Shown: positions 48,356 through 48,874 of the stretch, piece after piece
Layout of the letters: each line of letters begins with the position of its first letter
Numbering within the stretch: position 1 is the stretch's first letter
NCBI RefSeq assembly: GCF_003334335.1
Contig: NZ_QOWQ01000033.1
Reading direction: 5' to 3' (one strand)
DNA length: 53,508 nucleotides
Source of the DNA: Escherichia coli
GTDB lineage: Bacteria; Pseudomonadota; Gammaproteobacteria; Enterobacterales; Enterobacteriaceae
Notes under the pieces: generated by a model
What the model was told of the DNA's origin: nothing
Database searches by the model: none
What the model saw: only the letters and a program-made list of their open reading frames with translations
Translations under genes and position numbers: made by a program

Positions 48356-48874
48356 TTCTTTGACCGATTGTTGTTCACAGCGAAACAGTAACGCGCATAT
48401 CGCATTGTTTATTGTTTTTTCTAACATCTAATGCCGGGTTTCACAATGTTGTCATGCCGAATGTGGCGATTTCTCAGCAGGAAAAGGGCGGAATAGCTTT
48501 CTGAGAAAGGTGAATCCCCTTAAACAGAGCGTATTTTTCAGCGATTCCCTTTAAAGTGAACAGAGGACGTGTTGGCTATTTGTGCTTATTTTTGTCTCCT
48601 TGCCGTTTGTTATTTTGGCTTGTGGTCGCGGAATTTCATTTTTAATTGCATGCGTACTAACCACCAATATAAGGAAATCCTCAAAATTGTTTTAAATAGT
48701 GCCCTCGACATGTAATTTCAGGCGTTTAGCTGTAACTATTTATATCGGTAACTATTTTCTACACGTCATCTCTGTAGAATGGCCACCGCCAAATGGCGAA
48801 TTCTTATTTTTTCTCGCGGGTAATACCCTTCCACTACTTAAGTCTTTTTAACGTATTCAGGTGGAGATTCAGTT

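Follow-up and report, generated by a model that had tools for sequence, protein, structure and literature searches.

Proteins of the NarL/VraR/GerE type normally bind inverted half-sites as dimers. The yhjB gene of Escherichia coli encodes a NarL/VraR-like protein, and a site such as a NarL 7-2-7 site or an RcsB box would therefore be expected in its upstream region. The repeat of GTAACTATTT found there is direct, unlike these inverted sites, and the intergenic region contains no TTACA, which TGTAA would give in reverse complement; two palindromes nearby, at 48670-48683 and 48818-48828, come closer to the type. The setting also recalls a LysR-type autoregulatory site, given the divergent pair formed by a LysR-type regulator gene (yhjC) and another gene, yet the words of the repeat are direct, neither 16-bp unit contains an inverted pair of the T-N11-A kind, the distance to the yhjC start is ~380 bp and the in vivo YhjC site lies elsewhere. 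A further likeness is to the Pho box and the OmpR/PhoB family, which share with our repeat the direct orientation, TGTAAC- or GGTAAC-like words, and the overlap of one copy with the -35 zone of a promoter without a -35 consensus; indeed, words similar to the repeat occur in accepted PhoB sites (table in PMC10294691). Pho boxes, however, recur every 11 bp (class period 10-11 bp, same helix face), whereas the period here is 16 bp, so that the element is a direct repeat like an OmpR/PhoB-type tandem box and departs from its period. Nor does the spacing agree with that of LytTR-type operators, which consist of 9-10 bp repeats ~21-22 bp from start to start, or with the 21-22 bp of AraC-type repeats. 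A case of this kind is present in the window itself, that is, the whole 53.5-kb stretch of DNA analysed here: a second perfect 10-bp direct repeat, GGCATTTCAT-N11-GGCATTTCAT (8816-8846, 21 bp start to start), stands 85-115 bp upstream of an ORF starting at 8931 (MTPSNYQRTR). We take this ORF to be yhjX and the repeat to be the known YpdB (LytTR-type) operator; if so, such repeats in the window can be real operators. The yhjB repeat shares with it the perfect direct copies of 10 bp, the position in the promoter of a single gene and a distance of ~85-145 bp to an ATG; it differs in its 16-bp spacing, as the copies of the presumed YpdB operator are 21 bp (two turns) apart and are bound by a known protein. 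A period of 16 bp amounts to 1.5 helical turns, which puts the two copies on opposite faces of the helix; it fits no tandem-dimer class and agrees with no dimeric operator class tested. The consensus sites of CRP, TyrR, CpxR, ArcA, OmpR, OxyR, GntR, IHF, Lrp and Nac do not appear to fit the repeat either.

The window is a piece of the E. coli chromosome in the orientation opposite to MG1655 (window position w equals NC_000913.3 position 3720769 - w). Around the repeat it carries yhjD (46394-47407, - strand), yhjC or rcdB, encoding a LysR-type regulator of 299 aa (47456-48355, - strand, current RefSeq annotation), yhjB, encoding an orphan NarL/FixJ-type regulator of 200 aa whose closest solved relatives are VraR, DesR and NarL (48875-49477, + strand, ATG at 48875), and treF (49528-51177, - strand). 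With the current RefSeq start of yhjC at 48355 (299 aa, MDKIHAM...), the yhjC-yhjB intergenic region measures 519 bp (48356-48874); the 447 bp given in the initial annotation fits an older 323-aa yhjC ORF from 48427 and has to be revised under the current gene model. Its description as AT-rich stands, at 39.7% G+C across the 519 bp. The region is present, in single copy, in 5424 of the 5426 complete E. coli genomes. Toward yhjB, the nearest 210 bp form a mosaic of deeply conserved blocks; the 300 bp on the yhjC side are mostly unalignable between genera. The yhjB-proximal 210 bp travels with yhjB even where the upstream neighbour changes, and E. fergusonii, C. amalonaticus, C. sedlakii and C. 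rodentium have no yhjC beside yhjB at this locus. The genes found upstream of yhjB are yhjD and a 57-aa ORF in E. fergusonii, and a short-chain dehydrogenase gene in C. amalonaticus and C. sedlakii. Downstream of yhjB, Salmonella has a phage-type lysozyme gene, not treF.

The repeat itself was correctly described. Two perfect 10-bp copies of GTAACTATTT occupy 48732-48741 (copy 1) and 48748-48757 (copy 2) on the + strand, 16 bp from start to start with the spacer ATATCG between them, and read as ...ttagCTGTAACTATTTatatcgGTAACTATTTtc... across both; from the end of the repeat to the yhjB ATG there are 118 bp, close to the ~120 bp proposed. These are the only exact occurrences of GTAACTATTT in the window. 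The likeness between the copies reaches 15-nt units, TAGCTGTAACTATTT and TATCGGTAACTATTT, with 13 of 15 positions equal, and an inverted partial third copy, TAAATAGT (reverse complement of ACTATTTA), lies at 48693-48700 on the - strand and is kept within Escherichia only. In 5000 dinucleotide-preserving shuffles of the intergenic region, perfect direct repeats with copies of 10 bp or longer, no more than 20 bp apart, appeared in 1.9%, and any 7-mer present three times within 70 bp in 2.7%; across the whole window there are six perfect direct repeats of the former kind (>=10 bp, gap <=20 bp), as against ~1 in shuffles. Such figures are suggestive: the repeat is unusual for this intergenic region, although shuffle statistics alone are no proof of function. 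A dispersed repeat or a fragment of a mobile element is ruled out, as the sequence has one place per E. coli genome.

To follow the repeat across species, the yhjB loci of E. albertii, E. whittamii, two cryptic Escherichia lineages, E. fergusonii and three Citrobacter species were added, together with those of Intestinirhabdus alba, S. bongori, S. enterica and S. enterica subsp. arizonae as further outgroups. The resulting alignment holds 13 genomes (six Escherichia lineages and seven outgroup genomes; the genera were counted as five, with Escherichia, Citrobacter, Intestinirhabdus and Salmonella named), and identities are given versus E. coli. The two copies differ sharply. Copy 1, which sits inside an element of the form AGCTGTAAnnATTyATA, has an identity of 1.00 in Escherichia and 0.74 in the outgroups, whereas copy 2 has 0.95 in Escherichia and 0.40 in the outgroups, the latter no higher than the background set by non-conserved spacers. 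Where E. coli has copy 2, the sequence is GTAACTCTTT in E. albertii, GTTACTTTTT in E. fergusonii and a pyrimidine-rich stretch in Citrobacter and Salmonella. Within Escherichia, a 32-bp block with both copies and the spacer between them (48728-48759, + strand) is conserved between hypervariable spacers, namely 48717-48727 before it (identity 0.74 in Escherichia, 0.31 in the outgroups) and 48758-48772 after it (0.66 and 0.44). Variable columns within Escherichia number 6 of 32 in 48728-48759 versus 10 of 11 in 48717-48727, 10 of 15 in 48758-48772 and 36% overall; the constraint on the block corresponds to a hypergeometric P of ~0.02, which, with six Escherichia lineages compared, supports constraint on copy 2 weakly. 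From copy 1 to a -10-like hexamer further downstream no indel separates the 13 genomes, save for one extra base in Salmonella, and Tandem Repeats Finder reported no tandem repeat in the region. A tandem duplication is ruled out by these two results, and copy 2 arose by substitutions. The pair is a feature of the genus Escherichia, built on the older single element AGCTGTAAnnATTyATA. Another short word close by is conserved as well. TGTAAT (48711-48716, + strand), which precedes the TGTAAC of copy 1 by 20 bp, has identities of 1.00 in Escherichia and 0.98 in the outgroups, with five of its six positions invariant in the 13 genomes and the fifth position differing in Intestinirhabdus only.

The relation of the repeat to the yhjB promoter turns on the -10-like hexamer TAGAAT (48775-48780, + strand), which a crude matrix ranks first among the -10 matches of the region and which lies in a conserved block, GTAGAATGGCC (48774-48784), followed by a second one, CGCCAAATGGCGAATTCTTATTTT, starting at 48787. 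The hexamer varies at its third position only (TAAAAT in Salmonella, C. amalonaticus and Intestinirhabdus), and GTAnAATGGCC is invariant in 13 of 13 genomes. The element AGCTGTAAnnATTyATA stands at a fixed 42-43 bp upstream of it. If TAGAAT is the -10, yhjB transcription would start near 48787, ~7 nt after the hexamer, and copy 1 would then cover approximately -55 to -46 and copy 2 approximately -39 to -30, at the -35 position. No -35 consensus occurs there, and the hexamers that precede TAGAAT by 16-18 bp (TATTTT, CTATTT and ACTATT) are poor -35 matches. A promoter scan of the region returned no full sigma-70 promoter on the + strand, as expected for a factor-dependent promoter. In vitro, RNA polymerase alone transcribes the intergenic region toward yhjB in run-off assays, with a slight, 1.58-fold preference of the sigma-S holoenzyme (PMC3141248). 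The supplements of two Cappable-seq papers, searched by coordinates and genes, list no yhjB start site, and the literature found mentions no yhjB promoter; all promoter-relative positions, the -35 and -50 placements of the repeat included, are thus inferred ones. The main uncertainty of this geometry is a 14-codon ORF, MATAKWRILIFSRG (48779-48823), whose ATG and TAA are invariant and which is intact in 13 of 13 genomes. Its ATG overlaps TAGAAT, so that a translated ORF and a -10 hexamer are mutually exclusive readings; were the ORF translated, the start site would lie upstream and the proposed geometry would be wrong. Its variable columns, however, fall on codon positions 1, 2 and 3 in the numbers 6, 6 and 5, that is, with no codon-position bias, and it is not preceded by a Shine-Dalgarno sequence, which suggests conservation at the nucleotide level. 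A longer ORF of 50 aa that spans the repeat (48699-48851) was discarded, given single-base indels in relatives and blocks that vary without codon periodicity. An RNA element in the leader was likewise set aside: there is no Rfam match near threshold, the fold z-score is -0.65 and covariation is seen in 0 of 12 predicted pairs.

We tentatively favour, and consider quite possible, a model where the block is part of the upstream and -35 zone of the yhjB promoter, with copy 1 as the ancestral contact and copy 2 as an Escherichia addition. In all genera, copy 1 would be contacted by one sequence-specific factor reading GTAAC-type words singly, or else by the alpha subunit or sigma region 4 of RNA polymerase. 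Copy 2, which arose through substitutions in the Escherichia lineage and has been kept since, would provide there another contact, one that extends into the -35 zone and might in this way tune yhjB transcription. Some observations speak against such a promoter element, namely the imperfect copy 2 of E. albertii and E. fergusonii, the polymorphism of copy 1 at 48737 within E. coli and the 16-bp phasing. Of the initial annotation's proposal that the repeat is a candidate operator of a neighbouring regulator, the regulatory role remains plausible in view of the block conserved in Escherichia and of the fixed distance from copy 1 to the hexamer, but the attribution to the two neighbours is not supported, and that to YhjC is contradicted by the data considered further below. 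Probably the element is functional but ordinary, and the repeat a modest lead: an ordinary promoter element rather than the best candidate operator in the region.

In a second explanation, doubtful but deserving attention, the copies have no function as a pair: copy 1 would be a real conserved element and copy 2 a chance likeness in AT-rich promoter DNA, kept in Escherichia as a generic -35, UP-like or H-NS-bound sequence or through too little time for change. Within E. coli, 5037 of 5426 complete genomes carry the 35-bp block 48726-48760 unchanged, and ~7% lack an exact 28-nt match in it; two sampled genomes lacking an exact block match both have T>G at 48737, which turns copy 1 into GTAACGATTT, and in one of them copy 2 is altered too, by T>C at 48749. 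Nine diverse strains show no change in the repeat, and their substitutions cluster in the 12-15 bp after copy 2. The K-12 inverted repeat TTCTACA-N9-TGTAGAA (48757-48779) lies immediately after copy 2. It was rejected as an element on account of a left arm not conserved in other Escherichia, and as its spacer is, moreover, the most variable stretch within E. coli, it is probably incidental. A functionless pair would accord with IS1 insertions in the intergenic region of two strains, ET82 and I3, in which yhjB is not lost; in ET82 the IS1 ends flush against copy 1, between 48731 and 48732, and splits the repeat from the upstream conserved blocks. It would accord as well with a chance of ~2% per region of this size when many such regions exist in a 53-kb window, with the absence of copy 2 outside Escherichia and its erosion in E. 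albertii and E. fergusonii, and with a 16-bp phasing, in AT-rich DNA, that matches no known binding mode. Coincidence is harder to reconcile with a copy 2 whose identity within Escherichia far exceeds that of the next 15 bp (0.95 versus 0.66), with a likeness that, at 13 of 15 positions, extends past the AT-rich core, and with five or six substitutions relative to the outgroups that all move copy 2 toward copy 1.

It is improbable, in our judgement, that the repeat is an autoregulatory operator of YhjB, with two YhjB units on the two GTAACTATTT words repressing or activating its own promoter. Autoregulation is common for such regulators, and the conserved upstream region stays with yhjB whatever the neighbouring gene. 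Copy 2, however, is absent outside Escherichia although yhjB is kept there, and the DNA-binding domain of YhjB is of the NarL/VraR/GerE type that uses inverted half-sites, which makes two direct words without an internal dyad, 1.5 turns apart, a structurally unlikely target. Two palindromes better suited to this family and better conserved than the repeat, at 48670-48683 and 48818-48828, are present on either side. The palindrome-like TAAGGAAATCCTCA (48670-48683) has identities of 0.89 in Escherichia and 0.72 in the outgroups, and it resembles an RcsB-type box. Its counterpart in E. albertii, TAAGGATATCCTTA, is palindromic over all 14 bp; Salmonella has TAAGATATTCCTTA. A further short palindrome, CGCCAAATGGCG (48787-48798), is embedded in a near-invariant 26-bp block, 48783-48808 (0.98 in Escherichia, 0.88 in the outgroups). 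Finally, the 11-bp palindrome GGGTAATACCC (48818-48828), ~50 bp before the yhjB ATG, is invariant in 13 of 13 genomes, within a conserved block, CGGGTAATACCCTTCC (48817-48832), of identity 1.00 in Escherichia and 0.96 in the outgroups. Its TACCC arms resemble NarL-type half-sites, so that a NarL-family protein would more readily have its operator in GGGTAATACCC than in the direct repeat. The three short palindromes, conserved more deeply than the repeat, are all better operator candidates. The single YhjB ChIP-exo peak, at dhaK/dhaR, is common to several other factors, and none was reported in the yhjC-yhjB region (PMC8464067). Without sequence likeness to the repeat, and being shared in this manner, the dhaK/dhaR site was rejected as a source for a YhjB motif. 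That experiment, however, used glucose M9 only, where YhjB, as an orphan whose receiver domain is atypical, may not be active. YhjB is among the few response-regulator-like proteins of E. coli with no known partner kinase, signal or regulon, and the conservation map, with the repeat block, the fixed -10-like hexamer and the three palindromes, offers concrete targets for finding the regulator of yhjB.

A bolder version of the history, which we regard as a long shot, is that a cluster of substitutions in the Escherichia ancestor made a second copy of an ancestral regulator site, 1.5 turns nearer the promoter and atop its -35 zone, and thereby changed the control of yhjB. If true, the second site could, for example, turn an activating site into an occluding one, and the gain of the site would give a datable example of promoter rewiring confined to one lineage, with an unusual 16-bp phasing.

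Less credible still is that the two copies themselves form an Escherichia-specific promoter, with CTGTAA of copy 1 as the -35, a 17-bp spacing, TATTTT of copy 2 as the -10 and a start at ~48765, giving a transcript that includes the 14-codon ORF. This arrangement is the third-best match of a crude sigma-70 matrix scan (score 7.5), and the conserved ATG at 48779 would fall inside the transcript. Yet the -35 matches at 3 of 6 positions only; E. albertii (TCTTTT) and E. fergusonii (TTTTTT) have lost the TATTTT, which other genera do not have either; and the ORF that the transcript would carry shows neither of the coding signs sought above.

For the other regulators, mapped sites are available. 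To place those given on the older MG1655 sequence version, we assumed an offset of 1977 bp from the current version at this position, and used it to map the YhjC site. That site, the YhjC ChIP-exo site near its own gene, is listed at 3670355-3670371 in the older coordinates (PMC8464067, supplementary data set S4), a version that other entries of the same table fit, and maps to ~48421-48437, on a block, TTCTAaCATCTAAT, whose conservation reaches Salmonella. From there it is 66-82 bp to the yhjC start and ~300 bp to the repeat. LysR-type regulators are often encoded divergently from their targets, and YhjC does bind within the intergenic region in vivo, but with the bound site this far off, a repeat that is no interrupted dyad, a copy 1 conserved where yhjC is not adjacent, and no YhjC motif defined by the Shigella and Salmonella studies, the repeat is very improbable as an operator through which the divergently encoded YhjC/RcdB controls yhjB. 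The earlier statement that no regulon is known is outdated for this protein, since csgD, virF, spvD and zraP are reported targets of RcdB, the same protein as YhjC.

Next to the YhjC site, a YqhC ChIP-exo site at ~48447-48485 is marked as bound by RNA polymerase (PMC8464067), and PhoB binds TTTCACAATGTTGTCATG (48439-48456), near the yhjC promoter, with expression unaffected (PMC10294691, PMC3465305); the YhjC and YqhC sites adjoin this PhoB box, the three lying within ~48421-48485. A reading of the repeat as a second PhoB box was rejected, the mapped PhoB site being a different one and the period of the repeat being wrong. In Salmonella, indole induces yhjB 7- to 20-fold, together with ramA, and a SoxS ChIP site of S. 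Typhimurium (GCACATTTTGTTAAA) lies in the yhjB upstream region. The only marbox-like match in the E. coli region, GCACAAATAGCCAAC (48571-48585, - strand), aligns with the region of that SoxS site; the repeat has no GCAC-N5-RYYAAA match, and a marbox (SoxS/RamA) reading of it was dropped in favour of the site at 48571-48585. None of the mapped sites of YhjC, YqhC, PhoB, YhjB and SoxS touches the repeat. As a minor observation on the distribution of yhjB, a 241-bp scaffold filed as Limosilactobacillus vaginalis DSM 5837 has a translation that matches residues 76-155 of E. coli YhjB with 100% identity, and is almost certainly a contamination of that assembly.
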